This document shows positions 713-18,058 of a stretch of 18,965 bases of DNA, piece by piece. How positions within the stretch are numbered: the stretch's first letter is position 1; every line of letters begins with the position of its first letter. The position numbers were made by a program, and so were the translations under genes. The notes under the pieces are model-generated. The model worked only from the letters and a program-made list of their open reading frames with translations, ran no database searches and was not told the origin of the DNA. Source of the stretch: Terriglobia bacterium (lineage in GTDB: Bacteria > Acidobacteriota > Terriglobia > UBA7540); the NCBI GenBank assembly GCA_041946825.1, contig JBHGBD010000048.1, positions 1 to 18,965 on the forward strand. Direction: 5' to 3'.

Positions 713-1036
713 CTATCTGGTCGCGATCTCGGAATTGATTCTGACCACTTTGTTCAATTGCTCGATTTGCGACTTCAGTTCCCGGATTTGCGCCTGCTGC
801 TCTTTCACCGCCTCAACGAGCAGCGCCGTGAGTCGCGCATAGTCCACGGATTTGGCGTCCACGCCGTTCGCTTCATAGGTTACAACTTCGGGAACGACTT
901 CACCCACCTCCTCGGCAATCAATCCGATGTTGTGTTGGCCGTCGGCTTTTGCATCATATGTCACGCCGCGCAGCCGCTCCACGGTTGAGAGCGCCGCGTG
1001 GATCGTTTGTATGTTTGTCTTCCAGCGCCGGGAGCT
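713..1036 (-). other. Peptidase S74 / intramolecular chaperone auto-cleaving domain. The predicted cleavage Ser lies in SSRRWK at about 1034-1036
   Basis: Motif alignment by eye to the S-D-x-R-x-K ... IGxIAQEV ... VDYxxLxxLLVEAIKEL consensus of endosialidase and T5 L-shaped tail-fibre C-terminal domains. Confidence 0.7.
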
Positions 1037-4000
1037 ATAGGTCGTCCACGCATCGGCGATAGGATCGGTGGCCGAAGCCTGCTTCACGGTGAGAATGTTG
1101 CTGGCGTTTGAAATTCCAATCGCCACGTTACCGGGTACGACGAAATCTCCGGAGCTGAGATTCACACTATCTCGCATTACCCTGTAAAGCACGATGGTGT
1201 CAGGAAAGCCGCTGTAGGCGGTCGGTGTAATGCATGCACCACCGGGGTTTCTCCGGCTGAGCACCTGATTCAGAATGAATCCGGTGGTCGTCATGTCGAG
1301 CATCCCGCCCCCGTCCCACGTTCCCAAGTGGCTGTCGGAATAGTTGCTGCTGTATTCTGTCCCAGTACAGCCGGGCACGACAAAATAGGACTCTCCCACG
1401 CCCTGAGGTGCCTGGCAATTGGGGCCTATGCAAACCCCCTTTCTGACCACTAGAGCGTTATCAAAGAGGGCATTTCCACCCGCTACCTGGAACTTCTCGA
1501 CAGGAGAGGCTGTGCCAACTCCGACCTTGTCGCCCGCAAGAACAAGTTGATCCGTCCCTGCTGTCAGGCCGTTGGAGGGCAGGTTCAGTGTTCCCGTCAT
1601 CGTGTCGCCGACCTTGGAGACTTTAGCGAGGTCGAGCGCCGTGTCTGCCGACGTCCGTGCCCCGATTTCAGCGGTATCGCCTGCCTGGCGCGCGCTTGCC
1701 TCGGTCGTGACGTCAGCCGGCATGGCGGGGGTGAAATTCAGCTCTGCGGCTGACACGCACCCGGTGCAGTTCACGTTGTTGGCAGTCCCAACGGGGACGT
1801 TGACGAGACCCGACCCATCGCCGAAGAAGTGTCCGGCGTGGAGGTCATCCGAGAAGAACGCCCCGCCGATGGCGCTCACGTTGAACGTGTAAGGTTGAGA
1901 CGAGGAAAACTCTCCCCGCGAGCCGTCGGACCAGACGAAGGTTTTGTTATGGATTGCCCGGGCGCGGAAGCCGGCGGCAAGGCTCCCTTCGCCCTCCGCG
2001 ATGTTGAACTCACCGCCCGGTACCGTCGATACTCGCCCGCTGGCCGCGTTGTGCTGACCTCCGCCGACGGCGGCATAGGCCCCGTCACCAAATACGTCAT
2101 TGTTGCTTCCCGCTTCGTTATCCGCCCCGCCGGCGACGGTCCCGTAATCGTCCGTCACGCGGTTGGCACCGCTGGTTGCCGAACCGCCCCCGCCGATGGT
2201 TGCACCTCCGTAGGCCCAGCGGACGTAATTCCCGCTCATGCCGCCAATGATATTCGGGCTGTCATAGCCGGACTGGAACACCAGGGCATTGTTGATCGAC
2301 CCGCTCACCCTCAGGTTGCCGTTGACGGTCTGGGTCCCCGTAAAGGCGTTGTCGCCTTGAGTGGTTGCGCGTAGGTCGATTGCAGCTTGAAGCGCCGTGT
2401 CCGCATTGGTGCGGAGCACGGCCTCAGCGTTGAGGTTGCTTTGCAGTGTGATATCGGCACCACTGCGGGCGGTGCTTTCGGCACTATCAGCTGCTTGGAG
2501 CGTTCCGACCTCAGTAGCCAACTGCCCTTGCGTCACCGCGTCTGGAATGTTGCTGATGTTGAGATTGGTCAGCCCCGCCCCATTGCCCGAGAATGAGCCC
2601 GTGAAGGAAGGAGCTGAAATACCACCTGCAGCCCAGACATTCCCACTGCCCTCGACACGGAATTTCTCTCCCTCGCCAGTCGCGCCGCTCAGGATCTTCC
2701 CTCCTTGCTGATTCACGAAGAGTCCGGCGACTCCCGCTGGACTCTCGACGTGCCCCTTTACGCCGATGGTTGTTCCTGTCGTGTCATGTGCCTCGCCGTA
2801 TACGCCTGTACCTGTGGGCCCGTCCGTCATGCCCCTCACGCCAAACGTTGGGCTGGTGCCATCGACTCCCGATCCGTTGCCGGAGGACACAGCATAGATT
2901 GCTGGCGAGTTGCTTACGTTGGTGGCGCGAATCGCGTTTACCCCGTCGGTGTTGAGTTGTTGAGCGATTAGTGCCGCCCCAGAGCCGTTTTGATCCACTT
3001 TGAGTACCTCACTGTCCGTGTTCCCGTACATGCCCTGTTTTCCGTTGAAGTCGTTCCCCACATCCAGCCGCGCGTAGGTCGCGGCGGGGACGTTCCCCAA
3101 AGCAGCCGCGTTTAACGCTTCATTCGCGCTAAGGGCGGACGTGGCTGTCTGGGCGGTGTTGGCAGTCTCTGCGGTTTGTGCTGTCGTCGCGTGCTCAGCA
3201 TTGGCTGCCGTGGCCGCTGTCGTGATACCCGTCAGCCCCGAGCCGTCGCCGGAAAACGATCCGGCCGTGATACTGCCCGGTACTGAGATAGTGCCCTCAG
3301 TCCAGATGTACATCCGGTCTTTGCCGTCTGTCCGGAAAATGAGCGGAGCGACCGTTCCGGGGTCAGTTTGCACCACGCCGTGATCGTTGGCGAAGAACAG
3401 CGACATGGATTTGTTCTCGGAGCTGATGAAATTCAATTGCCTGAAGGTGCCTGAGGGATTCAAGATCTGGATGTCGCTCTGGCCCCTCAGGGTTCCCGTG
3501 AGGTCAAGATTTCCCGAGATGCTCTGGTCGCCTGTGAAGGTGTTGGTCGCAGTGAGTTGCGCAAAGCTGGTAGCAGGTTGCCCGCCCAGCATTTGGGCGT
3601 TTGTGGCGTCGAGCGCCGTAAGCGCACTGGTCGCCGGGCCGTTTTTGGTGCCACTTCCGGCGTAGTTGATTCCCAGTTGCTGATCTACGACACAGTCCGT
3701 GCAGTTGAGCCCTGTCGCTGTCCCGCCTCCGGTTGAAGCGGTTGTCTGCGTAGTGCCGTCGGGAAAGATCAGGCCCGTTCCATCGCCGCTGATTTTCAAA
3801 TTCCCCGCCACCTCCAGCTTTTCCGTAGGAGCGGTTGTCCCGATGCCGACATTGCCGGTCCCCTTGATAAGCATGATCGGGTCTTTGGTGGAGATGTTGA
3901 GGTTGTCTTCCCCTTGAACGGAATCTAGATTCGAGAAGAATCCAATATCGTTCTGCTGGTTGTCGGTGCCCAAAACGACCATATCTTTCTGATCCAGTTG

Positions 4001-7000
4001 CGGACTCGAGTAGCCAAAATAGGCGATCCCGCCTTGGGCCGTGTGCAGTGCCAACCCGGCGCGGCCGTGGGGCATGTCCATGTTGACGTTGAGCCCCGTA
4101 ACGAATTGCGGATAGTCAGTGCCGTCAGGGTTTACACGCAGGCTCCCGCCATCCACATGTAGCCTCTCACCAGGTGCCCCGGTTCCGACGCCTACGTTGC
4201 CGTTGCTCTTCAGGACGGTGAACAACGACTCCCCGTTCCGGTCGATGCTCATATACTGCGGCGCCACACGGTAGAGGAGGCTGAGGCCGACGCCCGACTC
4301 ATCCTCTTCCATGAACTCGATGCCGTTGGGTCCGCCGCCACCGAGGCGTATCTGGGGGTTTGAGCCTCTGATGTCGAGCGCACGCTGCGGGGTGAGTGTG
4401 CCAATCCCCGCCTGTCCAGTCGTCGTCAGGTTACCCGAAATGCTCTGGTCGCCCGAAAAGTTATTGGTGCCGCCCAGGACGGCGGGAGCGAACGCCAGCG
4501 CGCCGCTGGGGATATTCGTCAGCCCCGAGCCGTCGCCGGAAAAGCCCGACGCTGCCACCGTGCCGCCGACCATGAGGTCGTTCGAGAAGAACCCCCCGCC
4601 CTGGGCGCGCACGACAAACTGGTTGTTGCCGGTGGAGGACACGTCGTCATCCGTCGATCTGTCGCCCCAAACGAAAGTGCCGACCTCAATCGCTTTGGCG
4701 TGGTATCCCGCAGCGAAACTGTGTTCGCCAAGAGCCTGGTTGTAAGAACCACCAGGCACAGTGGCGGCATAGGCGCCGGCCAGGTTGTGCTCGCCCCCGC
4801 CCACTGTGCTGTCGTTGCTGTTGGCTTCGTTGTGGTTGCCCCCCGCCACGGTCGACTTGGCGCCGCTGGCCGTGTTATCCGCCCCCCCACCCACGGTCGC
4901 GAAAGCAGCATTGTCGGCGCTTTCGGCATTGTCCCCCGCCTGGTTGTTGACGCCACCCGCGACTGTGCTGAAGTCGTCCGTCACACGGTTGAACCCGAGG
5001 CCCGCGTTTCCACCCCCTCCAATCGCTGCCCCTTGCACGTCTGGCACGACATAGTTGCCACTGGTGCCAGCGATGAAGTTCGCGCCGTACGGGTCGCTGC
5101 CCTGGATTACCAGCCCTCCATTGATTGAGCCAGTCACCGAGAGGTTTCCGCTAATGCTTTGGTCTGCCGTGAAGTTATTAGTGCCGCCCAAGTCGGCGGG
5201 AGCGAACGCCAGCGCGCCGCTGGGGATATTCGTCAGCCCCGAGCCGTCGCCGCTGAACGATGCCGCCGACACGTTGCCCGGCGTCGTGAGGTTGGCCGAT
5301 CCGCTTTCAAAATTCACGGCGGTGAGGGGAGTACCCGAGGCGTCGACTCCAGTAATGAACCTGAAACCGCCCGTGGCGCGGGCGACGAAAGAGTTCCAGC
5401 CGGCGTCGGTGACGTCGGCGTCGGTCTGGTCGCCCCACACGAAGCTTCCACCACTTGTGGCTTTGGCACGGTTACCTGCCGCGAAGCTGGAGAACCCTGC
5501 CGTGTTCTTGAAGCCTCCCGGCACGGTCGCAAAAACGCCATCGGCGATGTTCTGGTCTCCTCCCCCCACGCTGTCGGCCCAGTTCCCGGCGGTGTTGCCG
5601 CTCCCGCCCGCCACCGTCGAAGCCCCGCCCTTCGCGGTGTTGCCCGCTCCACCCGCGACCGTATCGGCCCATGCGCTGGCTTTGTTTCCATCACCTCCGC
5701 CGATAGTTGCGCTCGTCCAGCCAGGTCCCGCCGCAATGTTATTCACGCCCCCGCCGATAGTCGAGCCTCCTGCGTTGGCTTTATTGAATACGCCGCCGGC
5801 CACAGTGGCACAGCAGGCGTCATCGAGCGTTCCCGCGTCGTCCCCCGCCTGATTGCCAGCTCCGCCGCCGATGGTGCTTGTGACGTCCGTGACGCGGTTA
5901 GGGTACAGGACCTCGCCGCCGCCGCTAATCGTGACCGTGTGCAGCCCTGGCGCAATGTAGTTGGCACTAGAGCCGGCAAGTATATTGGGGCCATCTGCGG
6001 TGGTGTCGATCCGCAGTCCGTTGGAGCTGATCGCACCCGTCAGGCTAAGGTTTCCAGTGACGGTCTGGTTGCCGACAAAAAGGTTTGTCCCTAGTGTGGC
6101 CACGCCGGTGACATCGCCTACAGGGTGGGTATGAACAAGCTGTGAATATCGCGCGTCCGTGTAGCCGGTATTGAGATCTAGCCTGCCCGTAGTTCGAATC
6201 GGCCCTCCCGTCAATCCAGGACCGGTCATGATGCTGGTAACGGTTCCGCCCGTTCCCGTGGGGAAGCCATTCAGATCCAGGTAGGAATTGGCGCGCACGT
6301 TGCCCCCACCATCGACGCTGAACATCTCAGTTCCCGGTGCGACGCCAGAACGGCCACTCAGGATCTTGCCGTTCGTGTCGGTGGTCAGGAACGAGCCCGC
6401 GACACCTGTGGCGCTATTCACTTGGCCCCCCACGCCGACGGGGATAGCGGTTGTGGAAATGGAAGAGGCATATCCAAAGATGCCGGTACCAGTCGCGCTA
6501 GTACTGGCCCCGTGGACGCCAAAAGTCTGCCCGCTTACGGCCGTGGCCTGTCCACGGACTGCGGCTTTGCCGCTGGTCGGGCTCACAACGATTGCAGACA
6601 ACGCGTCCCCTGTGCCGTTCTGCTGGACGGATACCACCTGGTTCGTGGTGGTGTCGGCGAAGCTCGTTGCGGGTGTAGTTTTGGGCGCGCCCCCACCGGC
6701 GGCAGCAGGTGCGGCGGCAAGGGCTTTGCCAGTCGAGGCCGCCGTCGTTTGCGCCGGCATGAGCACCGCGACGGCGGTGCGCACTTTCTGCTCAAGTTGC
6801 TCCGCGAGGACGAAATCCGAGGCACGTTTGCCCCCGAGTTTTGCCGCGTCTTCGGCTTTGAGAGCGTAAGGGACACTCACCATCAGGACACGCGGATCCT
6901 CATCGCGATTCTCAACCTGGACACCCAGCCATCGCGCTTTTCCGGCAGGAAAGAGTTCGACGGGAACGCCCGTGTTCGCAGTCGCTCCCAGCAGAACCGT

Positions 7001-7291
7001 GTAGCGGCCCTGCTCATCGAGTTGGATGACCTGGGCTTCATTCCATAGCGCCGTGCCGCCTTGCGGCTCTTCATAAACTGAAAACGTGAGCCGCACAGCA
7101 ACGTTGCCGATCGGTTCGCCGTTGCGATCTCTTACCACGCCGTTGAACTGGATCAACCGCGGCACTGGCGCGACGGAGGTTTGGCTGGTCTCGGCCGTCG
7201 GCTCCGACTGCGCGATCGCCGTAAATGGAAGACCGACCGCCAACAGCAGAAGAATGAATGTCATCCGGAAGACACGTGTAGGGCGACGCAT
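713..7291 (-). CDS. Giant secreted fibrous protein (~2192 aa), phage tail-fibre/tailspike-like. It has Hep_Hag/YadA-head-like 14-residue repeats and a C-terminal intramolecular chaperone (Peptidase S74) domain
   Basis: The ORF 713..7342 is uninterrupted. I place the start at the ATG at 7291 because GGAGGTG sits 5 nt upstream (plus-strand complement cacctcc, 7297-7303). A classic signal peptide follows: MRRPTRVFRMTFILLLLAVGLPFTAIA|QSEP. The C-terminus reads ...YSSRRWKTNIQ...HNIGLIAEEVGEVVPEVV...VDYARLTALLVEAVKEQQAQIRELKSQIEQLNK, which matches the endosialidase CIMCD / S74 consensus (S-x-R-x-K dyad) plus a terminal coiled coil. There are many repeats of the form xTVxGGxxNxAxG and five copies of F(S/F)G(D/N)G(S/A)GL(T/V)N. 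Confidence 0.85.
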   Translation of the reverse strand: MRRPTRVFRMTFILLLLAVGLPFTAIAQSEPTAETSQTSVAPVPRLIQFNGVVRDRNGEPIGNVAVRLTFSVYEEPQGGTALWNEAQVIQLDEQGRYTVLLGATANTGVPVELFPAGKARWLGVQVENRDEDPRVLMVSVPYALKAEDAAKLGGKRASDFVLAEQLEQKVRTAVAVLMPAQTTAASTGKALAAAPAAAGGGAPKTTPATSFADTTTNQVVSVQQNGTGDALSAIVVSPTSGKAAVRGQATAVSGQTFGVHGASTSATGTGIFGYASSISTTAIPVGVGGQVNSATGVAGSFLTTDTNGKILSGRSGVAPGTEMFSVDGGGNVRANSYLDLNGFPTGTGGTVTSIMTGPGLTGGPIRTTGRLDLNTGYTDARYSQLVHTHPVGDVTGVATLGTNLFVGNQTVTGNLSLTGAISSNGLRIDTTADGPNILAGSSANYIAPGLHTVTISGGGEVLYPNRVTDVTSTIGGGAGNQAGDDAGTLDDACCATVAGGVFNKANAGGSTIGGGVNNIAAGPGWTSATIGGGDGNKASAWADTVAGGAGNTAKGGASTVAGGSGNTAGNWADSVGGGDQNIADGVFATVPGGFKNTAGFSSFAAGNRAKATSGGSFVWGDQTDADVTDAGWNSFVARATGGFRFITGVDASGTPLTAVNFESGSANLTTPGNVSAASFSGDGSGLTNIPSGALAFAPADLGGTNNFTADQSISGNLSVTGSINGGLVIQGSDPYGANFIAGTSGNYVVPDVQGAAIGGGGNAGLGFNRVTDDFSTVAGGVNNQAGDNAESADNAAFATVGGGADNTASGAKSTVAGGNHNEANSNDSTVGGGEHNLAGAYAATVPGGSYNQALGEHSFAAGYHAKAIEVGTFVWGDRSTDDDVSSTGNNQFVVRAQGGGFFSNDLMVGGTVAASGFSGDGSGLTNIPSGALAFAPAVLGGTNNFSGDQSISGNLTTTGQAGIGTLTPQRALDIRGSNPQIRLGGGGPNGIEFMEEDESGVGLSLLYRVAPQYMSIDRNGESLFTVLKSNGNVGVGTGAPGERLHVDGGSLRVNPDGTDYPQFVTGLNVNMDMPHGRAGLALHTAQGGIAYFGYSSPQLDQKDMVVLGTDNQQNDIGFFSNLDSVQGEDNLNISTKDPIMLIKGTGNVGIGTTAPTEKLEVAGNLKISGDGTGLIFPDGTTQTTASTGGGTATGLNCTDCVVDQQLGINYAGSGTKNGPATSALTALDATNAQMLGGQPATSFAQLTATNTFTGDQSISGNLDLTGTLRGQSDIQILNPSGTFRQLNFISSENKSMSLFFANDHGVVQTDPGTVAPLIFRTDGKDRMYIWTEGTISVPGSITAGSFSGDGSGLTGITTAATAANAEHATTAQTAETANTAQTATSALSANEALNAAALGNVPAATYARLDVGNDFNGKQGMYGNTDSEVLKVDQNGSGAALIAQQLNTDGVNAIRATNVSNSPAIYAVSSGNGSGVDGTSPTFGVRGMTDGPTGTGVYGEAHDTTGTTIGVKGHVESPAGVAGLFVNQQGGKILSGATGEGEKFRVEGSGNVWAAGGISAPSFTGSFSGNGAGLTNLNISNIPDAVTQGQLATEVGTLQAADSAESTARSGADITLQSNLNAEAVLRTNADTALQAAIDLRATTQGDNAFTGTQTVNGNLRVSGSINNALVFQSGYDSPNIIGGMSGNYVRWAYGGATIGGGGSATSGANRVTDDYGTVAGGADNEAGSNNDVFGDGAYAAVGGGQHNAASGRVSTVPGGEFNIAEGEGSLAAGFRARAIHNKTFVWSDGSRGEFSSSQPYTFNVSAIGGAFFSDDLHAGHFFGDGSGLVNVPVGTANNVNCTGCVSAAELNFTPAMPADVTTEASARQAGDTAEIGARTSADTALDLAKVSKVGDTMTGTLNLPSNGLTAGTDQLVLAGDKVGVGTASPVEKFQVAGGNALFDNALVVRKGVCIGPNCQAPQGVGESYFVVPGCTGTEYSSNYSDSHLGTWDGGGMLDMTTTGFILNQVLSRRNPGGACITPTAYSGFPDTIVLYRVMRDSVNLSSGDFVVPGNVAIGISNASNILTVKQASATDPIADAWTTYSSRRWKTNIQTIHAALSTVERLRGVTYDAKADGQHNIGLIAEEVGEVVPEVVTYEANGVDAKSVDYARLTALLVEAVKEQQAQIRELKSQIEQLNKVVRINSEIATR
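4479..4537. repeat. 59-bp exact intragenic direct repeat, copy 2
   Basis: Identical to 5194-5252 (within +-1 nt). A third partial copy, cgtcagccccgagccgtcgccgg, is at about 3228-3255. Confidence 0.8.
5194..5252. repeat. 59-bp exact intragenic direct repeat, copy 1 (encodes GDGSGLTNIPSGALAFAPA)
   Basis: cggcgggagcgaacgccagcgcgccgctggggatattcgtcagccccgagccgtcgccg is identical at 4479-4537. Each copy is embedded in a roughly 715-bp diverged tandem module. Confidence 0.8.
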
Positions 7292-7296
7292 GGAAT

Positions 7297-7303
7297 CACC
7301 TCC
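7297..7303 (-). promoter_or_regulatory. Shine-Dalgarno GGAGGTG for the giant gene
   Basis: The reverse complement of 7292-7310 is cagtcttGGAGGTGattcc, followed by ATG. Confidence 0.5.
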
Positions 7304-7746
7304 AAGACTGTCAGGCAGCGCGAGTGATAACGCTGGGCACACTTCTGTCTCGCTTGGAGCGAGTTTGATTCACACCGTGCAGTTCACCTGCCATACCGCA
7401 AACTGGTTGCAGGAGAATGTCACAGTGCTGGAATTGTCGCATCGCAGTTAGTATTGTGAGGTTGAGGAAAGACCGATAGCTCTTGGAGCAGGAAGCCTGG
7501 ATTTGGGCGAGTTGCCCTAGTGGAACTCATGGAGCAGTGTGCCTCAAACTGCAACTTAAGATGAAACGTTTTGCGACTGGGTGTTTACGGATGTCATATC
7601 ACTCTACTTACTAAGGATGGAACCAAGGGGCCCGATACGGATCGCCATCACTCAACGAGCGAGAGTCTCTTGCGATTTGTATATTCCCCCGAGCATTATC
7701 TCAACAGATATCATGCTGAATCTTTAGATTATCCATTCGACTCTTA

Positions 7747-7761
7747 GTGACATTGTGTCAC
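7747..7761. promoter_or_regulatory. Perfect palindrome GTGACA-TTG-TGTCAC, a candidate operator
   Basis: Read directly. It is a 6-3-6 inverted repeat in the non-coding spacer. Confidence 0.3.
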
Positions 7762-8285
7762 ATCGACTTTGAGTCCGCGGGTTCGAAGGGAGACGTTAGG
7801 TGATTGTGGATTTGGCCGAGCCAGATCGCGCCCTAGAAAGATGCGACGCAAGTGAAGTACTCCGCTGCTCGCTTTCGCGCTGCGCGAAGTTCCGCCACGG
7901 ACTGAGATGGGATTTCGGTTCGATGTTGCGGAGATGACCTTCACAGTCGGATTTGTGAGCTTGTGCCTTGGGAGGGCGGCGCCCCGAAAGGATGCTCGAT
8001 CGGTTTGGAATTAGAATTCGGTGAAAATCAGGCGTCTGCATTCCATCGACGTCTCTCGCCCGATATATTGTGATCGGCGCAGCCGAATACGCACACCGAA
8101 GTAACGAACTCGTCGCATTACTCGCCGGTGGTGCACACAGCTGGGAGATTTCCTGTTGCGTTTCGTGTCCGTTCGGACCGGAAGCAAGTAAACCACCCGG
8201 CATTTACCGCCAACCCTTCCAGTAGTAGCACCAGAACCTTCACCAGCACAACCATGGTCCCAGGACGAGTTGTGGCGATCGTCAC

Positions 8286-8293
8286 GGGGGGGG
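8286..8293. repeat. G8 homopolymer tract in the non-coding spacer
   Basis: gtcacggggggggcaac. This is a potential slipped-strand site. Confidence 0.4.
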
Positions 8294-8498
8294 CAACAGG
8301 TGCTCGATTTCTGTTCGGGTTGTGTGGTAGGGCCGGGAGGGATCACGCTCAGAAAGTCACGCCGGGACCGAAACCCTAACCCCGTTTCCATTGCCATCCT
8401 GACATCTGACCTACTCCGCCGCCACCAATAGAGAAGGGTCACATGGAATTCTCGGGGATGCCCCGGGAGGGCAAATCTTCTCATCCCAAGTGTCCTCA

Positions 8499-9371
8499 TT
8501 ATGAGAGCCGATGGGCGACTACCGTCATTACGGCGTCCCGCAGTTCAGTGCCCGGCATCAACCGCTGGCTCCACCGCGCGTACCACGTGAAGTAGTAGTT
8601 CATGCAGTCGGGGCTGTACTCCGGAATCAGCCCGTCAGGTCGGGTGGAACGAATGATATCCTTTGGATCTTTGCCAACGGGGATCTGCCAAAGCTCCGGC
8701 GCCTCGTGCCGCATGTCCCACCACCGCGCTCCGTACGGCCCCCAGCGGAGTTCATTAATGAGCTGCTCTCTATAACCATCAGATAGGTCCAAGGATTCGA
8801 TCCATTCCATCGTCGCCGCCACCAGTACGTCGATATATCTCGTGCGCTCTTGCTGGTCTGACTCCAAGCGTTCTTGGTGCTCGCGAACCCTTCTGGCGCC
8901 GCCTATTTTGAGCGCCTGCCGGCAACTGAGCCTTCCCTGCTGAATCAGCAGCTTCTCATCCTTGGTCAGCTCATTCAGCCGCAGGTATTGGCGGACGAGA
9001 CCCTCGGAACAGCCAAGCGCCTTCGCCAACGCTCGTCGCGAATGGCCGGCCTCGGTGAGCAGCGCCAGGCGCAGGCTACGTTCGGATGCTGAAAGGTGGG
9101 CCCATTCGACCCGAAGTTGCTCGATTTCGGCTTCATCCCCGATATCCAGAGGGCGCAGATCATCGCTGACCGTTCGGCCGATTGCCGCACCTGGTGCAGC
9201 GTTCCCCGCAGGCGCGCCAGAGGGCTCGTTCGCCATTTCGCGATGCGCTTGGCAATTAACACCAGACCCAGCGCTACTTCCCGGCGGAGGAGTGGTGGAC
9301 TCCCCCCGCTCGGGCATATCGCACGAACTGGCGCCAGCGTAGGCTGCGCTCGGCGAAGGCCGCCTGCCCAT
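8499..9371 (-). CDS. ParB/KorB-like helix-turn-helix DNA-binding protein with a C-terminal domain of unknown function
   Basis: The ORF 8499..9533 opens with TTG. The first ATGs are at 9371 and 9236 and neither has an SD, so the start is uncertain. The HTH segment HSRRALAKALGCSEGLVRQYLRLNELTKDEKLLIQQGRLS resembles the ParB/Spo0J pattern (LAxxLGxSxxxVxxxLRLLxLxxEVxxLIxxGxLS). The first 50-100 residues are low-complexity (S/P/G-rich). The stop overlaps the next downstream frame as TAATG. Confidence 0.5.
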   Translation of the reverse strand: MGRRPSPSAAYAGASSCDMPERGESTTPPPGSSAGSGVNCQAHREMANEPSGAPAGNAAPGAAIGRTVSDDLRPLDIGDEAEIEQLRVEWAHLSASERSLRLALLTEAGHSRRALAKALGCSEGLVRQYLRLNELTKDEKLLIQQGRLSCRQALKIGGARRVREHQERLESDQQERTRYIDVLVAATMEWIESLDLSDGYREQLINELRWGPYGARWWDMRHEAPELWQIPVGKDPKDIIRSTRPDGLIPEYSPDCMNYYFTWYARWSQRLMPGTELRDAVMTVVAHRLS

Positions 9372-9627
9372 GGACGCGGACGAAGGCTCGCTTGGCACGC
9401 TTACGGATTCGTTCGAGCTTGCGAAGGAGCCGCCCCGCTGCTGCCCCGTGATTGAGTAGCCAGCTTCGAATATGCCGGTGGCGAACGAGCTTGGTCGTGA
9501 CGCGCACCGCCAAGATACAGGCTGCCAGATCAAAGGCGCTCATACTTAGGCGGTGAAGAGGACCTTCCTTGGAGGAAAGACGAGCATGAAGGTCAACCAC
9601 GAAACCGGTGCTCGCGGAAGGCTGCCC

Positions 9628-9676
9628 CGAATTCGTAAACCGTAGGTCGGGGGTTCGATTCCCTTCGCCGGCTCCA
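9628..9676 (+). tRNA. tRNA-like 3' partial, Thr(CGU)-like. It has the anticodon loop TTCGTAA, a variable loop, the T-arm GGGGG-TTCGATT-CCCTT, the acceptor 3' strand CGCCGGC, discriminator T and CCA, but no canonical 5' half. It is a probable att-site remnant or tRNA pseudogene
   Basis: By coincidence the coordinate 96NN equals the standard tRNA position NN. T54-T55-C56-G57-A58 sit at 9654-9658, G53 and C61 are present, and CCA is at 9674-9676. The 5' acceptor strand (9601-9607, gaaaccg) pairs at only 3 of 7 positions, and the D and anticodon stems are broken. The intact part is the roughly 45-nt segment that tyrosine integrases typically duplicate. Confidence 0.4.
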
Positions 9677-9798
9677 ACCTTTCATCTCGACTTTCTAATC
9701 CAAAGGCTCGTGCGCGGGGTTCCCGGCTTTGAGGATTCGCCCTCAACCCTGGGGAGGACACCGGGCATCCGATTTGACTTGGGATTTCCGCGGAAACC

Positions 9799-10077
9799 TC
9801 AGGGTGCGGGCGTGGTAGCTGTAGGCGAGACGGAGCCTTCCTGGGGTTCCTTGAGCTCCCGGTCGTAGGCCTTGCGCGATCGCGGATTACTCAGGACTCT
9901 GTAAGCCTCGGTGATTTCTCGGAAGCGGTTTCCTTCAACCCCAGGGGTCACGTCGGGATGATATTTCTTGACCAACTCCCGAAAACGTTGGCGAATTGCT
10001 GTTCCGGTAGCATTGGCTGGGACACCGAGGAGTTCGTAATGCGTGTACTTCGGCGTTGCCGCCCTGCGCTCCACCAA
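9799..10077 (-). CDS. Small stand-alone J-domain (DnaJ-like, HPD motif) protein, about 92 aa
   Basis: KYTHYELLGVPANATGTAIRQRFRELVKKYHPDVTPGVEGNRFREITEAYRVLSNPRSRKAYDRE is a canonical J domain. The ORF stays open up to 10323. However a strong SD, GGAGGAA (complement at 10084-10090), sits 6 nt before the TTG at 10077 and 9 nt before the GTG at 10074. The stretch upstream of these uses many rare A/T-ending codons. I therefore prefer the short form. GC3 is lower than in the neighbouring genes. Confidence 0.55.
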   Translation of the reverse strand: MVERRAATPKYTHYELLGVPANATGTAIRQRFRELVKKYHPDVTPGVEGNRFREITEAYRVLSNPRSRKAYDRELKEPQEGSVSPTATTPAP

Positions 10078-10083
10078 GAACTG

Positions 10084-10090
10084 TTCCTCC
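10084..10090 (-). promoter_or_regulatory. Shine-Dalgarno GGAGGAA for the J-domain gene
   Basis: The plus strand reads ttcctcc, and TTG/GTG follows on the minus strand. Confidence 0.45.
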
Positions 10091-10512
10091 CCACCGTGAC
10101 CTCTATCCGCGAATGCCCGAAGCCAGGCAGCCGACACGGCATGGCACAAACTTGCCCAAGCCGTATGGCTATGTCGAAAGTTAGTGGGTATATGCAAAAA
10201 AGTCAAGGAAAGAGACGACATGGACTGCGAAGTCCCAACTGCAAATCCTGAGTCGACAGCGCTCTTAAGCAGCCTTGAGTTTAACACTCGATACACATCT
10301 TTCCCTACCCCCAGATCTTTCATCGAGACCTTTCTTGGCCCTCGGAATTTATCGCTCGCGCCTGCAATTCAAGCCTCAGTGCAATTAGCGGATCGACCTC
10401 GGTCGCCCGGCGGTGAACTTGGTCCCCGACCCAAATGGTGTGCTCGGCGTCAGATCCGGCCTCCCTCGTGCTACCCCTTGCGCTTCCCTGCCCGATGCGG
10501 TTTGATAGGGGC

Positions 10513-11688
10513 ATGAAAATCACATGGACTTCCGCGCTACTCCTTGTCCCGTTAGTCACCCAGTTTGATTTAATCTCTGCCGGGCAACTGTCCGCCAAGC
10601 CGCCGGCCAAGGGGAAATATCTCGTCTACATTGGAACCTACACCGGCCAATACAGCAAAGGGATATACGCCTACGAGTTCGAATCGCGTAATGGCCAACT
10701 GAAGCGGCTCGGGTTAGTGGGGGAGACGCCGAACCCTTCCTATCTGGCCATCCACCCCAGCCAACCGTTTCTGTACGCCGTGAACGAAGTGGACAACTAC
10801 GAAGGCAAGAAAGCCGGCTCGATCACTGCATTCGCTTTCGATGCCAGGTCGGGGAAGCTCACCTTGCTCAATGCAAAATCGACACGCGACGCGGATCCAT
10901 GTTATGTGACGGTCGACAAAACCGGGAGATACGCCCTGGTCGCGAATTACGGCGGCGGCAACGTGGCGGCGATTCCGATCGGCAAGGACGGCCGCCTGGG
11001 CGAGGCGTCTGCATTCATCCAGCACACCGGCCACGGCACCAACCCGGAGCGCCAGGAAGGCCCGCACGCACATTCCATCAACCTCTCGCCCGATAACCGT
11101 TTCGCGGTCGCGGCGGACCTCGGACTGGACGAGTTGCTCGTTTACCGCTTCGACCCGACGAACGGCTCCCTTATACCCAATGATCCTCCCTTCGCCAAAG
11201 TCCAACCGGGCGCCGGGCCGCGTCATTTCGATTTTCATCCTCGCGGCAAATTCGCCTACGCCATCTGCGAGATGGGATCCATTATCACCGCGTTTGCCTA
11301 CGACGCGGCGGCCGGAACATTGCAGGAATTGCAGACGATTTCGACCCTACCCAAAGACTACGCGGGCAGCAACGACGATGCCGACATTCATGTGCACCCT
11401 TCCGGCAGGTTTCTCTACGGGTCCAATCGAGGCCACGACAGCATCGCGGTGTTCGCGATCGATCCCGACAAAGGCACGCTGACGCTTGTCGAGCATGTCT
11501 CGACACAGGGCAAAACCCCGCGCAATTTCGGGATCGATCCTTCAGGAAGTTACCTATTCGCTGCCAACCAGGATTCTGACAACATCGTCGTCTTTCACAT
11601 CGATTCCAAAAGCGGGCGCCTGACCCCAACCGGCCAGACAATCGAAGTCCCTTCGCCGGTATGCGTGAAGTTCGCGGCGGCGGAATAG
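10513..11688 (+). CDS. Secreted lactonase-family 7-bladed beta-propeller protein (6-phosphogluconolactonase / 3-carboxymuconate cyclase-like)
   Basis: The ATG at 10513 starts a signal peptide, MKITWTSALLLVPLVTQFDLISA. The sequence repeats the YxxxxxG..P..xxxHPSGRFLY(xN) blade motifs, for example LAIHPSQPFLYAVNE, VDKTGRYALVANY, LSPDNRFAVAADLG, FHPRGKFAYAICE, VHPSGRFLYGSNRG and IDPSGSYLFAANQ. Confidence 0.8.
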   Translation: MKITWTSALLLVPLVTQFDLISAGQLSAKPPAKGKYLVYIGTYTGQYSKGIYAYEFESRNGQLKRLGLVGETPNPSYLAIHPSQPFLYAVNEVDNYEGKKAGSITAFAFDARSGKLTLLNAKSTRDADPCYVTVDKTGRYALVANYGGGNVAAIPIGKDGRLGEASAFIQHTGHGTNPERQEGPHAHSINLSPDNRFAVAADLGLDELLVYRFDPTNGSLIPNDPPFAKVQPGAGPRHFDFHPRGKFAYAICEMGSIITAFAYDAAAGTLQELQTISTLPKDYAGSNDDADIHVHPSGRFLYGSNRGHDSIAVFAIDPDKGTLTLVEHVSTQGKTPRNFGIDPSGSYLFAANQDSDNIVVFHIDSKSGRLTPTGQTIEVPSPVCVKFAAAE

Positions 11689-12218: not shown

Positions 12219-13790
12219 ATGCGCATATTATCAACCAGGAATTTCACCTTACTGCTGAGCATGCTGGCGCTCATGGCGCCAAGCACCCTCGCGGAGGTCA
12301 AGCTCCCGGCGTTTTTTAGTGACAACATGGTTTTGCAGAGCAGCGCTAAAGACCTGGTCTGGGGCACGGCTGAGCCGGGCGAACAAGTGACCGTATCGAT
12401 CGCGGGCCAGAAGGCCACGGCGGCCGCCGACAGTCAGGGCCGGTGGAGGGTCGAGATAGGGCCGCTCAAGCCCGGCGGCCCCTTGGAGATGACGATCGCT
12501 GGAAGAAATTCCATCACGATTCACAACATCGCGGTCGGCGAAATCTGGATCTGTTCCGGCCAGTCGAACATGGAAATGGCCGTGGGCAACAGCCCGCGCG
12601 CCTGGGGCGGCGTCATGAACTCCGCGCAGGAAATCGCGGCGGGCAATTTCCCGATGATCCGGCAATTCATGGTCAAGCACGCGGTGGCTGGCCGGCCGCA
12701 ATCCGACGTGCAAGGCCAATGGCTGGTCGCAAGCCCGCAGACTGTGGGCGAGTTTACGGCCGTGGGATACTTCTTCGGCCGCGATCTGCACAAGGCCCTC
12801 GGCGTTCCCATCGGCCTGATTCACACTTCCTGGGGCGGGACACCTGCCGAGGCCTGGACGCGAACTTCCACCCTTTCCGCCGATCCTGACCTGGCCTCGA
12901 TGGTCGCCGACTGGTCGCACAAGATTTCCGAATATCCCAGCCTGCTCAGGAAATTCCGCGAGGATTTCGATCAGTGGGAACCGGCCGCGAGCGCCGCCGA
13001 GAGCGAGGGCAAAATTGCGCCAAGACCCCCGCAATTCCCGGAAGATCCCAGGAGCAACCCGTGGCGCGCCGGCGGGCTCTCGAACGCCATGATTGCGCCG
13101 CTCATTCCCTACCGCATCGCCGGAGCGATCTGGTACCAAGGCGAGTCGAACGCCGACCGCGCCTATCAGTACCGCAAGCTTTTCCCCGCCATGATTCAGG
13201 ACTGGCGACAAGCCTGGGACGAAGGCGATTTTCCTTTCCTCTTCGTGCAACTCGCGAATTTCGTGCAGGACGACGGGCCCCCGACTTCCTGGGCGGAATT
13301 GCGCGAGGCGCAGTCCATGGCGTGGTCGCTGCCCAATACTGGCATGGCGACGGCTGTCGACATCGGCAATCCCTACGACATCCATCCCAAAAACAAGCAG
13401 GAAGTGGGCCGCCGCCTGGCGCTGGCCGCGGAAGCCATCGCCTATGGCAGGAAGGTCGTCTATGCCGGACCCATCTATGGATCAATGAAAGTGGAGGGCA
13501 GCGCCATTCGCGTGACCTTCAAGCACGTGTCCGGCGGGCTGGTCGCTAAGGGCGGCACCACAGCGCTCAAAAGTTTCGAAATTGCCGGCGAAGACCGCAA
13601 GTTCGCTCCGGCCGAAGCGACAATCTCGGGCAGGGATGTAGTCGTACGAAGCGCGCAAGTTCCCCGCCCGGTCGCCGTCCGTTACGCGTGGGCAGATGAT
13701 CCCGAGTGCAGCCTGTATGGCAAGAGTGGCTTGCCGGCGTATCCGTTCCGCACCGATAATTGGCCGGGAGTGACGGAGGGAAAGAAGTAG
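12219..13790 (+). CDS. Secreted SASA-domain carbohydrate esterase (sialate 9-O-acetylesterase family, SGNH-like)
   Basis: The SD GAGGAGA at 12208-12214 precedes the ATG at 12219. The signal peptide is MRILSTRNFTLLLSMLALMAPSTLA|E. The hallmark GQSNM motif appears in GEIWICSGQSNMEMAV, a later WYQGESN block follows, and the length of about 520 aa is typical of SASA-domain esterases. Confidence 0.8.
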   Translation: MRILSTRNFTLLLSMLALMAPSTLAEVKLPAFFSDNMVLQSSAKDLVWGTAEPGEQVTVSIAGQKATAAADSQGRWRVEIGPLKPGGPLEMTIAGRNSITIHNIAVGEIWICSGQSNMEMAVGNSPRAWGGVMNSAQEIAAGNFPMIRQFMVKHAVAGRPQSDVQGQWLVASPQTVGEFTAVGYFFGRDLHKALGVPIGLIHTSWGGTPAEAWTRTSTLSADPDLASMVADWSHKISEYPSLLRKFREDFDQWEPAASAAESEGKIAPRPPQFPEDPRSNPWRAGGLSNAMIAPLIPYRIAGAIWYQGESNADRAYQYRKLFPAMIQDWRQAWDEGDFPFLFVQLANFVQDDGPPTSWAELREAQSMAWSLPNTGMATAVDIGNPYDIHPKNKQEVGRRLALAAEAIAYGRKVVYAGPIYGSMKVEGSAIRVTFKHVSGGLVAKGGTTALKSFEIAGEDRKFAPAEATISGRDVVVRSAQVPRPVAVRYAWADDPECSLYGKSGLPAYPFRTDNWPGVTEGKK

Positions 13791-13882: not shown

Positions 13883-15142
13883 TTACCGGCTCGCCGCCAC
13901 CAGACAAGACGCAAGGGTCACGATGAATAGCGCGAGGAAAATCGGCGCGATCACCGGGCGTAGCGGCTTGCCGCCGATCACGACGGCGATGCCGCCCTTG
14001 ACCAGCGTATTCATCGCGCAGGCGAGTAGGATGGAAGCGTTGGCGGTCGAGGGCACGAGGACATTCTCGCGTGCCAGGCGCGCCATGGAGACGGTGATAG
14101 CATCCACGTCGGTCAAGCCGGCAAGCGCGCTGGCGATATAAACACCTGCCGAGCCAAAATAATGGTGCGCCGCGGTGGCCACAAAGAGCACGACGGCGAA
14201 CAGCAAGGCGAACTTCAAGGCTTGGCCGAGGTCCATCGGGTTCTTTACTTTCAATTGCGCCTCACCCTCGGCAGCTTTGCTTCTCCATAGATAGACCGCA
14301 ACTCCCACGCCCACCAGCGCGGGCATGCCAATCAACCACACCAGAGCCTGGGCGAGCGATGGGTAAATCACGAGTGCCAGGAACCAGACGCGAAAATACA
14401 TGATGGTCGAGGCGATCACGAGCCCAAGCGCAAAGTAGCGAGCCATGGCCGCCTCGGCTTCGCGTGCCTTCTCCGACAGGCCAAAGGTCACCGCCGTGCT
14501 CGAAGCGAGCCCACCCAGAAATCCGGTTACAGCGATTCCCTGCCGCGCCCCCATGAAGCGCATCAGGACGTAACCCAGCATGCTGACGGCGGAGATAAGG
14601 ACCACCATCCACCAAACCAGACGCGGGTTGAGTACCTCAAACGGCCCAAAGGCGCGGTCGGGCAGAAGCGGCAACACGATGACCGTTACGATCGCGAACT
14701 TCAGGATGGCGTACATCTCCTCTTCCTGGATCTTCTCCGCCAGTTGGTGCAGCGGAGCTTTCATGGAGAGGAGGAGCGTCGTAACGACGGCAAAGATGGC
14801 GGCCGGGATCAAATAGTCGAACGCCGCGAGCGCTCCCAACACAAACGTGAGGATGGCGACGAGCTCCGTCGTCGCACCCTTGTGTTGGCCTTGCGCGGTG
14901 ACGTAATACGCGGCGACGGCCACCGCCGCGACGCCGGCCAGCGCCACCGGCAGGACCCACGGGACTCCGGCGCGCGCCATCAGCGCCGAAAGGAATCCGG
15001 TCAAGGCAACGACGGGAAAAGTGCGGAAGCCCGCGAAAAGCGGCTCATCCTCTTTCTGCGAGTGCTGCCGCTCGAGGCCAATCAGCAGGCCCATCAGCAG
15101 CACCATGGCGCCATTCTGGGCGATTTGCAGGATGCTGGGCAT
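13883..15142 (-). CDS. MgtC/SapB-family membrane protein with a C-terminal DUF4010-type polytopic domain
   Basis: The N-terminus MPSILQIAQNGAMVLLMGLLIGLERQ carries the MgtC signature (LIGLER). About 10 further hydrophobic segments follow. It is the last gene of the minus-strand flotillin operon. Confidence 0.75.
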   Translation of the reverse strand: MPSILQIAQNGAMVLLMGLLIGLERQHSQKEDEPLFAGFRTFPVVALTGFLSALMARAGVPWVLPVALAGVAAVAVAAYYVTAQGQHKGATTELVAILTFVLGALAAFDYLIPAAIFAVVTTLLLSMKAPLHQLAEKIQEEEMYAILKFAIVTVIVLPLLPDRAFGPFEVLNPRLVWWMVVLISAVSMLGYVLMRFMGARQGIAVTGFLGGLASSTAVTFGLSEKAREAEAAMARYFALGLVIASTIMYFRVWFLALVIYPSLAQALVWLIGMPALVGVGVAVYLWRSKAAEGEAQLKVKNPMDLGQALKFALLFAVVLFVATAAHHYFGSAGVYIASALAGLTDVDAITVSMARLARENVLVPSTANASILLACAMNTLVKGGIAVVIGGKPLRPVIAPIFLALFIVTLASCLVAASR

Positions 15143-15262: not shown

Positions 15263-15721
15263 TCACACCGGCTCAACAATGACCCGGTCCGACGAATCCC
15301 AACCGGCGTAGTAGAGATCCACGCGCATATCGGGAAATTCTTTGTTCAATACCGTTCTCGCGCGGTGCAGATCCTCCTCTTGGCGGCGCCTCGGGTCCGA
15401 TGTCGTGTGTAAATGCAGCGGCAACTCTTTGTACCAGCCGCAATCCTGGTGCGCAATCAAGATCAGGCGCTTCAACTCGTGGGCATCAACGAGAAAGCGA
15501 AACCACTTCATCCCCGCCCAGGAGAACTTGGGCAGGTATTCGACCAACGTCAGGCATTGCGGCCCGCCGGGGAGCACGAGCAAGTCGTAGTTGCTGCGGA
15601 GATTCAGACCTTGGTTCAAGAAGTCCTGCAGCCCGGCCACGAAGCGGTGGTCGCTGCAATGGACGACCAGCACGTCCGTGTGGGCGTGCTCGACTTTCGA
15701 AGAGGAAGTATATGCAGGCAT
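15263..15721 (-). CDS. Small beta-class carbonic-anhydrase-like protein (152 aa) with CxDxR and HxxCG zinc-ligand motifs
   Basis: VVHCSDHRF matches C-x-D-x-R and IAHQDCGWY matches H-x-x-C-G, with spacing compatible with short Cab-type beta-CAs. It sits in the operon between the flotillin and MgtC genes. Confidence 0.5.
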   Translation of the reverse strand: MPAYTSSSKVEHAHTDVLVVHCSDHRFVAGLQDFLNQGLNLRSNYDLLVLPGGPQCLTLVEYLPKFSWAGMKWFRFLVDAHELKRLILIAHQDCGWYKELPLHLHTTSDPRRRQEEDLHRARTVLNKEFPDMRVDLYYAGWDSSDRVIVEPV

Positions 15722-15793: not shown

Positions 15794-17383
15794 TTACTCT
15801 GCCTTCTTCGCTTTGGCTGCTGGCAGCTCGCCGGGAGTCTTTGCTGCCTCCACAGCTTTGCTCCCATTGGCTGCGCCAAGTTGCGCAAGCACGGTCGGGA
15901 TATCGAGCCCCAGCGCCTGCAGTTGCTGGAGAAGGCTAAACACGAGCGCCGGGCCGGTCTTGGCGATGCGCCCGATGCCGCCCGTGCCGTCGCCCGTGGC
16001 GCCGTTGCCCTGCTCGATGACGACGACCTTGTCAATATTCCCGAGCGGCGCGGCCACGGCGCCAAAGATGCCCGCCGAGGATTGCAGCACGCTCGGCAGC
16101 TTCTCCAGGATTGTCTGAAGTTTGGCCGCGTCGTTGAATTGTTTCCAGGCCTCGGCCTTCTTCAGGATGGCCTGAGCTTCCGCCACACCTTGCGCCTCAA
16201 TGGCGCGCGCCTGCGCCAAGCCCATCGCCTCGATCTTCGCGGCCTCGGCGCGGCCTTCGGCTTCGACGGCCGCGGCCCGGCCCAAGCCCTCCGCCTTCAG
16301 TTTTTCCTGCTGAGCCTGGGCCATGGCGATTTGCGCCGCCTTCTGCCCGTCAGCTTCGAGAATCGCCGCCTGCTTCTTAGCCTCGGCGCGGACAATGGCC
16401 GCCAGTCGCTCGGCCTCCGCTGCCTTCACCACCGAGGCTTCGAGTTCTTTCTGCTTGCGCATCACTTCCTGTTCCTGGACGCCGATCTGCTCCAATGTCC
16501 GGGTCTTCTCGATGCGCACTTCCTCCGCCACCACACTCTGACGGGCCTTGGCATCGGCCTGAGGACCGGCTTGCGCGGCCTTCGCCTTTTCGATCTCAAT
16601 TTCCGCCTGGTAGGCCGCCTGTTTCACCTGGAAGTCGCGCTGCGCGGCGGCGATGTTCGCGTCGGCGTCAAACTTGGCTTTCTCGCCTTCCTGCATGGCC
16701 AGCGCGGACTTGATCTTGGCGTCGCGCATGGCTTCGGCTTCGCCGATGGTGCCGTCGCGCTTGACCTCGGCCGTACGCTTCTTGCCCAGCGCATCGAGGT
16801 AGCCTTCCTCATCGCTGATGTCCTGAATCGTCAGCACGTCCACGCCGATGCCCATGCGCTCCAGGTCCACGGCAGCTTCCGACGTCAGTTTCTGGGCAAA
16901 GCTCTGCCGGTCGCTGTTGACCTCTTCCACGGTCAACGTGCCGAGAATCGAGCGCAGGTGCCCTTCCAGCGTCTGGAAGATGACGCGCTGAATCTGGTCG
17001 TGAGTCATCGCCAGGAAGCGCTCAGCGGCGGCGGCCAGCGAAACGTCGTCGCCTTTAATCTTGACGTTGGCGACGGCCTTGACCGAAATCGGCACACCCT
17101 TGAGCGTGTAGGCGCGCTTGATTTCGAGGGGAATTGTGAAGACGTTCAGAGAAAGGTAATCGACCTTTTCGAGTAGCGGCCAGCGGAAACTTGCGCCGCC
17201 CTTTACCATCCGGTAGCCGACGATCCGGCCATCCGGCAGCTTGCGCTTTCGCCCGCTGAAGATCGCGACCACGTTGGGCGGGACTTTCAGGTAGTTCTTG
17301 CCAAACAGCGCCATCGCCACGATCAGCGCCAGAACCACGAGCATTACGACTATTGGAATAAGGTATTGTTCGAGTGCTTCCAT
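15794..17383 (-). CDS. Flotillin (SPFH/Band-7 domain, FloT/YqiK-like), 529 aa
   Basis: An N-terminal TM helix is followed by an SPFH core (LSLNVFTIPLEIKRAYTLKGVPISVKAVANVKIKGD...). Long EA-rich coiled-coil repeats follow (AEAERLAAIVRAEAKKQAAILEADGQKAAQIAMAQAQQEKLKAEGL), then a glycine-rich tail. The SD GGAGGAA is 4-5 nt before the ATG. Confidence 0.9.
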   Translation of the reverse strand: MEALEQYLIPIVVMLVVLALIVAMALFGKNYLKVPPNVVAIFSGRKRKLPDGRIVGYRMVKGGASFRWPLLEKVDYLSLNVFTIPLEIKRAYTLKGVPISVKAVANVKIKGDDVSLAAAAERFLAMTHDQIQRVIFQTLEGHLRSILGTLTVEEVNSDRQSFAQKLTSEAAVDLERMGIGVDVLTIQDISDEEGYLDALGKKRTAEVKRDGTIGEAEAMRDAKIKSALAMQEGEKAKFDADANIAAAQRDFQVKQAAYQAEIEIEKAKAAQAGPQADAKARQSVVAEEVRIEKTRTLEQIGVQEQEVMRKQKELEASVVKAAEAERLAAIVRAEAKKQAAILEADGQKAAQIAMAQAQQEKLKAEGLGRAAAVEAEGRAEAAKIEAMGLAQARAIEAQGVAEAQAILKKAEAWKQFNDAAKLQTILEKLPSVLQSSAGIFGAVAAPLGNIDKVVVIEQGNGATGDGTGGIGRIAKTGPALVFSLLQQLQALGLDIPTVLAQLGAANGSKAVEAAKTPGELPAAKAKKAE

Positions 17384-17512: not shown

Positions 17513-18058
17513 TTAACTCTTCCTCACAATCATCGTATCTCCGACGACCGCTTCGATTTTGACGAGGGCGTTGGAAGCAATCTCCTCGCCGTCAACGGAG
17601 CGCGCGATCTTCTCAACAACGCTCTCACCCAACTGGCAGCGCACCTGGCCGAGGCCGCCTTTGGGTATGGTCACGGACACGCTGGCCGTACCGCCGATCA
17701 AGTCGCTGACGTGCACCTCGCTCGATGCTTCCTGGCCGTGCAGAAACCTTACGAATACATAGACTATCCCGCCGAAGACAAAGCCGCTGGCCAGGCCCAT
17801 TGCGGTACTGACACCGATACCAAAGCCGGAATGGATCCCGATGGCGCCAAAGCCGCCGAACGCCGTAACGAATACACTGAGAATCCGTCCGCTCAGGAAA
17901 CTCGGACCTCCTCCATGCGTGTCAACATCGTGGTCGCCGAACCAATCCCCGAAATCGAAGATCTCTCCGGCGACGAAGCTGACAACCAAAACGAGGAATC
18001 CAATGGCCGCCAGGCCAAGGAACACACCAAAGGCGGAGAACGAAGCGAGGATGAACAT
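17513..18058 (-). CDS. NfeD-family short membrane protein (YuaF/YqiJ-like), the flotillin partner
   Basis: N-terminal TM helices are followed by a C-terminal OB-fold-like segment (GTASVSVTIPKGGLGQVRCQLGESVVEKIARSVDGEEIASNALVKIEAVVGDTMIVRK). It lies immediately upstream of the flotillin gene, which is the canonical nfeD-flotillin order. The SD GGGGGAGG is upstream. Confidence 0.8.
   Translation of the reverse strand: MFILASFSAFGVFLGLAAIGFLVLVVSFVAGEIFDFGDWFGDHDVDTHGGGPSFLSGRILSVFVTAFGGFGAIGIHSGFGIGVSTAMGLASGFVFGGIVYVFVRFLHGQEASSEVHVSDLIGGTASVSVTIPKGGLGQVRCQLGESVVEKIARSVDGEEIASNALVKIEAVVGDTMIVRKS

Follow-up and report, generated by a model that had tools for sequence, protein, structure and literature searches.

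A long interval without genes lies directly upstream of a giant fibre gene in acidobacterial DNA, and the question it raises is whether this interval regulates the gene, encodes an RNA or has no function of its own. The window analysed here comprises an entire contig (18,965 bp) from a MAG of the Terriglobia (Acidobacteriota), with locus tags of the form ACE145_. In the initial annotation, positions 7343-8498 were marked as a coding-free, AT-richer block for which three readings were offered: a long leader or promoter with a homopolymer tract acting as a phase switch, an unannotated structured RNA, or the remnant of a deleted prophage.

Extent, composition and coding content of the gap

The giant gene (713-7291, minus strand) encodes a secreted fibre protein of 2192 aa, in which a signal peptide and a conserved N-terminal module are followed by repeats and, at the C terminus, by a Peptidase_S74 intramolecular-chaperone domain. 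Its start is most plausibly the ATG at 7291 and not the GTG at 7342, as the ribosome binding site GGAGGTGATTCC matches the RBS context of its homologues. The gap is therefore 7292-8498 rather than 7343-8498, so that the block described before is indeed gene-free but its left edge was misplaced. It measures 1207 bp and is bounded by the ATG of the fibre gene and by the stop codon of an HTH gene (8499-9236), which is also on the minus strand and has a marginal match to HTH_ParB. Beyond the HTH gene, ORFs and Pfam matches indicate genes for a J-domain (DnaJ) protein (9799-10323, minus), a lactonase (10435-11688, plus), a SASA esterase (12219-13790, plus), an MgtC/DUF4010 protein (13883-15142, minus), a carbonic-anhydrase-like protein (15263-15721, minus), a flotillin (15794-17383, minus), an NfeD-like protein (17516-18058, minus) and a glyoxalase (18369-18851, plus). 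A tRNA-Ser (18897-18965, minus) is cut by the contig end. The gap is the longest intergenic region of the window, but the range of 40-530 bp given earlier for the others is too narrow, since the region at 9237-9798 measures 562 bp. That region is occupied, with a gene fragment and a tRNA fragment inside it (see later section). The contig end at 1-712 is likewise gene-poor.

The GC content of the gap is 53.7% compared with 60.1% for the contig. The description of the block as AT-richer thus holds for its average, but the AT-rich part is only the half that adjoins the giant gene (7292-7800, 49.5% GC). The distal half (7801-8498) has a near-genomic GC content of 56.7% and is still non-coding. Within the proximal half lie a degenerate trace of the promoter of the fibre-gene family and a probable 5′ UTR (7292-7345, minus strand), where comparison with the promoters of homologues revealed a strong RBS, a degenerate -10 trace and no -35 element. 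Neither the spacer nor its two halves are assigned a strand.

Coding tests were carried out on the whole gap. The spread of GC among codon positions was 0.02-0.10, compared with 0.22-0.32 in the flanking genes. The codon-usage log-likelihood, trained on the genes of the contig, was negative for every ORF in the spacer, and so was that of the best of the six frames in each 300-nt window from 7300 to 8500. Each frame contains 10-18 stop codons. No Pfam match was obtained for nine spacer ORFs and no PHROGs match for the two longest of them. When the concatenated six-frame translation of the spacer was searched against 5.8 billion proteins, nothing was found at E≤1, which suggests that no gene caller represented in this collection called a gene in the gap. 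One ORF of 162 aa (8011-8499, minus strand), with an ATG that overlaps the HTH stop codon (TAATG), was considered and rejected as spurious, having a score of -0.33 bits per codon and no homologue. The gap shows neither the periodicity nor the codon bias nor the homology of a protein-coding gene or recognisable pseudogene. All the tests run classify it as non-coding, and the earlier statement that it holds no plausible ORF was borne out.

The fibre-gene family and its promoter

The N-terminal module of the giant protein (~180 aa) is strongly conserved in a large acidobacterial family, most members of which are proteins of 600-700 aa. A set of 88 loci with homologues of the fibre gene was assembled for comparison, all of them more distant relatives than true orthologues would be; a genome scan for a comparable locus yielded one 37% relative only. 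The spacer was compared with these loci by blastn and nhmmer, and no similarity to any of them was found. The alignment for conservation suggested in the initial annotation therefore returned nothing across the 88 loci, which are distant relatives, and the spacer also showed no similarity to collections of plasmid and phage DNA. A literature search combining Acidobacteria with Peptidase_S74 found no papers.

Where they could be measured, the gaps upstream of the homologues are ~170-570 bp long. Individual values are 173 bp (L001), 205 bp (L002), 201 bp (L003), 371 bp (L005), 433 bp (L007), 304 bp (L042) and 526 bp (L006), the last following a DDE transposase fragment. At L033, the closest relative (61%), the gap is ~300 bp. 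L008 and L043 are also among the closest homologues, at 72% in the best segment.

When the 90 nt that precede the start codons were aligned, a family promoter, cTTGACA-N17 (rarely 18)-(g/c)TAG(a/t)GTcc, emerged in 22 of the 32 non-redundant loci. Its -10 element ends at a fixed distance of 43-45 nt before the ATG. With a PWM of this promoter, genuine sites scored 21-25 bits and the minus strand of the window did not exceed 2.8 bits anywhere in 7200-8700. At the position expected upstream of the giant gene, AAGTGT or CAGCGT is found instead of TAGwGT and the -35 matches at 2 of 6 positions, so that the two hexamers at the fixed distance are not seen together at this locus. The canonical promoter being degenerate in the window, another promoter would have to serve the giant gene. 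L033 also does not carry the canonical promoter, and the subgroup to which the window belongs may use a different promoter instead of having lost this one. Judged from the alignments, the regulatory architecture of the family is short and proximal; the window locus would either have lost this arrangement or never possessed it, and the additional 1.1 kb appears to be specific to this locus. The fixed proximal promoter of these fibre genes, with their signal peptide and Peptidase_S74 domain, offers a ready promoter model for the poorly studied Acidobacteriota.

A broken HTH gene and a tRNA fragment beside the gap

The protein encoded by the HTH gene at the distal border of the gap is 100% identical to NCBI MFB3924266.1, and its match to HTH_ParB, at 22.6 bits, lies exactly at the cut-off. 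It has one close relative, the paralogue P0002 (72% identity; ACE145_06895, MFB3921432.1) on a 283,846-bp contig of the same MAG, which belongs to an open frame of 568 aa, P0123. When P0123 was searched against the window with tblastn, its residues 277-567 matched 9377-8505 in one frame. Residues 48-164 are 70% identical to a fragment of the N-terminal domain at 9307-9654 on the minus strand, which is in a different frame from the HTH half, and residues 165-276 (~110 codons) have no counterpart in the window. P0123, P0124 and P0127 are contiguous proteins with the N-terminal domain followed by the HTH, and P0124 and P0127 hold the segment that is missing here. What survives as the HTH gene of the window is thus the C-terminal half, the only part still annotated, of a longer gene, which is intact in three relatives and broken in this contig. 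The HTH family comprises ~180 representatives at 50% identity, as determined by an exhaustive HMMER search. A search of metagenomes with the HTH protein returned nothing, alignments of the family detected no relatives in viral contigs, and NCBIfam gave no informative match for the family.

A second remnant is found at the far end of the broken gene. The sequence GGTCGGGGGTTCGATTCCCTTCGCCGGCTCCA at 9645-9676 (plus strand) corresponds to the 3′ end of a tRNA, with the T arm, a 7-nt acceptor strand, the discriminator base and CCA, and is read as an integration scar. No D arm or anticodon arm is present upstream of it, and ARAGORN reported no complete tRNA. In a search of 63 nt the fragment was scored as a tRNA-like match truncated at the 5′ end (E = 0.0012), a value that is significant only in such a small search space. 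There is no second copy of the fragment in the window, and hence no element could be delimited. In L089, the contig that carries P0124, a degenerate tRNA-Ser-like 3′ end, identical at 21 of 28 positions, lies upstream of the HTH homologue and is oriented relative to it as in the window. Downstream of this homologue, the DNA of L089 is unlike the spacer and extends for ~870 bp without a convincing gene.

Codon usage at this end of the gap is also atypical for the contig, the HTH gene scoring +0.02 and the DnaJ gene -0.10 bits per codon, where most of the remaining genes reach +0.11 to +0.42. Neither the spacer nor the rest of the window yielded an integrase, a transposase, a recognisable pseudogene or a phage gene. 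Of the marks of an integrative element that targets tRNA genes, the partial tRNA 3′ end at the border is present, at 9645-9676 and as the degenerate analogue in L089. The contig does not contain an integrase together with an att direct repeat beside a complete tRNA; these could lie past its left end. Together, the broken neighbour gene, the tRNA fragment and the atypical codon usage point to the decaying end of a lineage-specific integrated element.

Regulatory readings and the origin of the spacer

The G8 homopolymer lies on the plus strand at 8286-8293, exactly where it had been reported. It is the sole homopolymer of at least 8 bases in the contig and falls within the 162-aa open frame that begins at the stop codon of the HTH gene. 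Slipped-strand mispairing in such a tract could in principle switch the giant gene or a small ORF on and off, and homopolymer tracts underlie phase variation at contingency loci, as in Neisseria or Haemophilus. The G8 tract resembles these loci in its position near a gene for a surface protein. It differs from them in lying outside any coding frame and any pair of promoter hexamers: promoter scans found no recognisable -35/-10 hexamers flanking it, the start codon of the giant gene is 995 nt away, and the surrounding ORFs lack homologues and were scored non-coding in each frame. A first-order Markov model predicts ~1 G8 or C8 run per window and 1 was observed, with P = 0.037 when the gap block is taken alone. 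A phase-variation switch at this tract is scarcely credible.

The two palindromes described previously as perfect are both present, but both are interrupted inverted repeats. The site at 7747-7761, GTGACA-ttg-TGTCAC (6-3-6), overlaps the best promoter-like match on the plus strand, which is sub-threshold at 11.9 bits; the site at 7874-7888, TTCGCGC-t-GCGCGAA (7-1-7), belongs to a class of arm-7 repeats whose number is not above chance (P = 0.22). A third interrupted repeat, CTCGCT-tgg-AGCGAG (6-3-6), is found at 7349-7363, where the interval between the -35 and -10 of the family promoter would fall. No strand is assigned to any of the three. For arms of at least 6 and loops of at most 3, 4 hits at 3 distinct sites were counted against 1.17 ± 1.2 expected (P ~0.05). 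The sequences of the three repeats are unlike one another, and they have no half-site or k-mer in common. No enriched 6- to 8-mers, tandem repeats or iterons were found in the gap. An origin of replication (oriV) with DnaA boxes was also considered and was rejected, as a single 7-of-9 match was seen by eye where ~3 were expected by hand calculation and there were no iterons. The G8 tract and the inverted repeats thus occur at roughly chance frequency and are incidental.

A marginal HTH_ParB protein followed by non-coding DNA with short inverted repeats recalls the parS or centromere-like sites downstream of parB. The likeness does not extend further: ParA is absent, as is the N-terminal domain of ParB, the inverted repeats neither resemble one another nor recur, and the DNA downstream of the homologue in L089 is unrelated. 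Other programmed systems also left no trace. Distant inverted repeats reach at best 14-21 nt with 71-86% complementarity and the window holds no recombinase, as would be looked for in an inverton; the spacer is unlike the giant gene and the window has no reverse transcriptase, as would be looked for in a diversity-generating retroelement.

The length of the gene-free interval would also accommodate a novel structured ncRNA on either strand. Rfam at the gathering score had no match in the gap, and at E≤10 the region 7200-8600 gave only a spurious 14.6-bit fragment of the archaeal SRP RNA, for which the gathering score is 96.5; the covariance-model search recommended in the initial annotation accordingly matched no family to the gap. 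ARAGORN found no tRNA there. For 150-nt windows, the fold z-scores are distributed about 0 on either strand. The lowest, -3.0 among ~80 window-strand tests, belongs to 7600-7749 on the plus strand, and a 171-nt fold around it (z = -2.35) places an 11-bp stem at 7635-7685, with a T-rich tail after it. One z of -3 in 80 tests is near expectation, and no promoter-like site was found upstream of this candidate hairpin. Folds of the whole spacer gave nothing consistent, and as no homologous sequence was found among plasmids, phages and the 88 loci, there is neither conservation nor covariation to set beside the folding energies. The proposal of an unannotated structured ncRNA is therefore not supported by Rfam, by folding or by similarity, and such an RNA is very unlikely, although these negative results do not imply that the gap is untranscribed.

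A long regulatory region or 5′ leader is possible but doubtful. The promoter would then lie within the AT-rich proximal half or where the HTH gene ends, and the HTH protein would bind one or more of the inverted repeats. The positive sequence evidence for this reading amounts to the AT-richness and the gene's need of some promoter. An AT-rich proximal half is usual for promoter regions, and the degenerate family promoter leaves the giant gene in need of another. The minus strand has weak sigma-70-like matches at 7460-7433 and 8528-8498, an HTH gene lies immediately upstream, and no terminator-like site follows it on the minus strand, so that read-through is possible. The interval also resembles the long 5′ leaders of large bacterial surface-protein genes in being a big gene-free stretch that is AT-richer next to the gene for a large secreted fibre. 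The stricter promoter scan, however, was empty on both strands. The inverted repeats share no half-site, and no stable leader structure, riboswitch or conserved motif was detected in the gap. The homologues, in turn, manage with short upstream regions and a promoter close to the gene. No HTH gene is found upstream of the fibre gene in any homologue locus that was gene-called or inspected for ORFs, and the HTH homologue in L089 precedes unrelated DNA, which argues against a conserved linkage between HTH and fibre genes. The form of this reading that was put forward originally, a long leader or promoter with a G8 phase switch, is further weakened by the distance of the tract (~1 kb), its lack of flanking hexamers and its chance-level occurrence, as well as by the proximal promoters of the homologues. 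A combined version, in which the spacer became a lineage-specific leader or ncRNA locus that controls the fibre gene after decay of its promoter, through the HTH protein at the inverted repeats and/or slippage in the G tract, is highly improbable.

An artefact of assembly, either a chimeric join or a collapsed region, has also to be considered for a contig from a MAG, the more so as composition and codon usage shift across 7.3-10.3 kb. Both flanks nevertheless look acidobacterial, and so is the fibre family. The tRNA-Ser at the far end of the contig has an identical counterpart in L042, where a fibre homologue is also found, and there is no repeat that would promote a mis-join. An artefact is thus improbable.

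The reading we favour, with a probability of roughly 55%, is that the gap is non-functional or only incidentally functional DNA, produced when sequence bordering a lineage-specific remnant of an integrated element decayed or was rearranged. Most likely there is no discrete functional element in it, and it is non-coding, non-conserved filler. The remnant would consist, in order, of the tRNA 3′-end scar (9645-9676), the broken two-domain HTH gene (9654-8499) and then the spacer. The rearrangement would have replaced the 170-570-bp upstream region usual in the family, together with its fixed TTGACA-N17-TAGwGT promoter. At present the AT-richer proximal half probably supplies the remaining promoter activity, or else read-through from the HTH gene would transcribe the giant gene. 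On circumstantial grounds, we infer that the spacer itself derives from DNA of the element or from a decayed gene.

Of the three origins suggested in the initial annotation, the last, taken broadly as a remnant of deleted or decayed foreign DNA, is the best supported and the only one to gain support, although indirectly, through the broken HTH gene, the tRNA fragment and the codon usage. As nothing phage-specific was found, the term prophage exceeds the evidence. The neighbourhood of the gap resembles the genomic-island scar of a tRNA-targeting integrative element in its tRNA 3′ fragment, its broken lineage-restricted gene, its atypical codon usage, its lower GC content and its non-conserved spacer; it differs in that neither an integrase nor a second att copy nor a complete tRNA was seen on this contig. 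It also differs in that the spacer has no protein homology and would be former coding DNA only by inference. Bacterial genomes commonly have long gene-free stretches beside DNA that was horizontally acquired or is decaying, and in this respect the gap is ordinary and of little significance. The uncharacterised two-domain HTH family adjoins tRNA-fragment scars in two unrelated genomes, which hints that it may be a module at the end of a mobile element.

The promoter of the fibre-gene family

The ~90 nt preceding the start codons of the fibre genes were compared in loci L002-L044, contigs that carry homologues of the giant fibre gene (713-7291, minus strand). Of the 32 non-redundant homologue loci, 22 have the same promoter, cTTGACA-N17(18)-(g/c)TAG(a/t)GTcc, in a fixed place. 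The distance from the end of the -10 element to the ATG is 43-45 nt, and the -10 element is followed by the ribosome-binding site GGAGGTGCTTCC. This consensus may be useful for modelling promoters in Acidobacteriota.

The window was scored with the position-weight model built from these upstream regions, in which genuine sites reach 21-25 bits. The top match, CCTTGACT-N-TTAGAGTAA at 18142-18175 on the minus strand, precedes the pair of NfeD-like and flotillin genes by ~85 nt. It is plausibly the promoter of this pair, though its score of 19.1 bits is the same as, and no higher than, the maximum in shuffled sequence.

In the search of the protein collection for fibre homologues, no match exceeded 700 aa, and the window's own 2192-aa protein was not recovered. 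This collection seems to lack giant proteins, and the absence of giant homologues in it is therefore uninformative.

The broken HTH gene and its neighbourhood

The annotated 245-aa HTH protein (8499-9236, minus strand) covers the C-terminal half of a longer gene that has two domains and is unbroken in P0123, a 568-aa paralogue from the same MAG, and in the further long-form relatives P0124 and P0127. In the window copy, the N-terminal domain is kept at 9307-9654 on the minus strand, but it is out of frame and ~110 codons are gone. The apparently intergenic stretch 9237-9798 is thus not empty, because this out-of-frame domain remains there. Codon usage in 8499-10323 was scored at +0.02 bits per codon for the HTH gene and -0.10 for the J-domain gene, the other genes of the contig ranging from +0.11 to +0.42. 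These values suggest a foreign origin for the 7.3-10.3-kb segment.

A tRNA 3'-end fragment is present at 9645-9676 on the plus strand, consisting of T arm, acceptor strand, discriminator and CCA, with the 5' half missing. No second copy of it was found within the window. This isolated fragment looks like an integration scar.

A very arginine-rich open frame of 162 aa (8011-8499, minus strand) begins at the HTH stop codon, its ATG overlapping the TAA (TAATG, 8497-8501). The overlap mimics translational coupling, but the frame scores as non-coding and is without a homologue.

The context of the HTH gene was examined in one relative, L089, the locus of P0124. There, as in the window, the HTH gene is followed by DNA without a convincing gene (~870 bp, 2105-2974); the sole ORF called in it, of 171 aa, is non-coding by score. 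This stretch and the window spacer (7292-8498) are unrelated in sequence.

Surroundings of the fibre genes

Downstream of the giant gene, positions 1-712 up to the contig end are also gene-poor (56% GC, only ORFs of 62-72 aa); therefore, gene-poor DNA lies on both sides of the giant gene. Fibre-gene homologues are often located in variable regions.

At the other contig end, a truncated tRNA-Ser(GCU) (18897-18965, minus strand) has, as far as it can be read, exactly the same sequence as the tRNA-Ser of L042 (405-497), a metagenome contig that also has a fibre-gene homologue (62% identity). tRNA genes occur 0.3-2.4 kb upstream of the fibre-gene homologue in five loci (L024, L040, L042, L073 and L083). 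Fragments of a DDE transposase and an rve_3 integrase adjoin fibre-gene homologues in L006 (7418-7795) and L002 (10709-10957), respectively.
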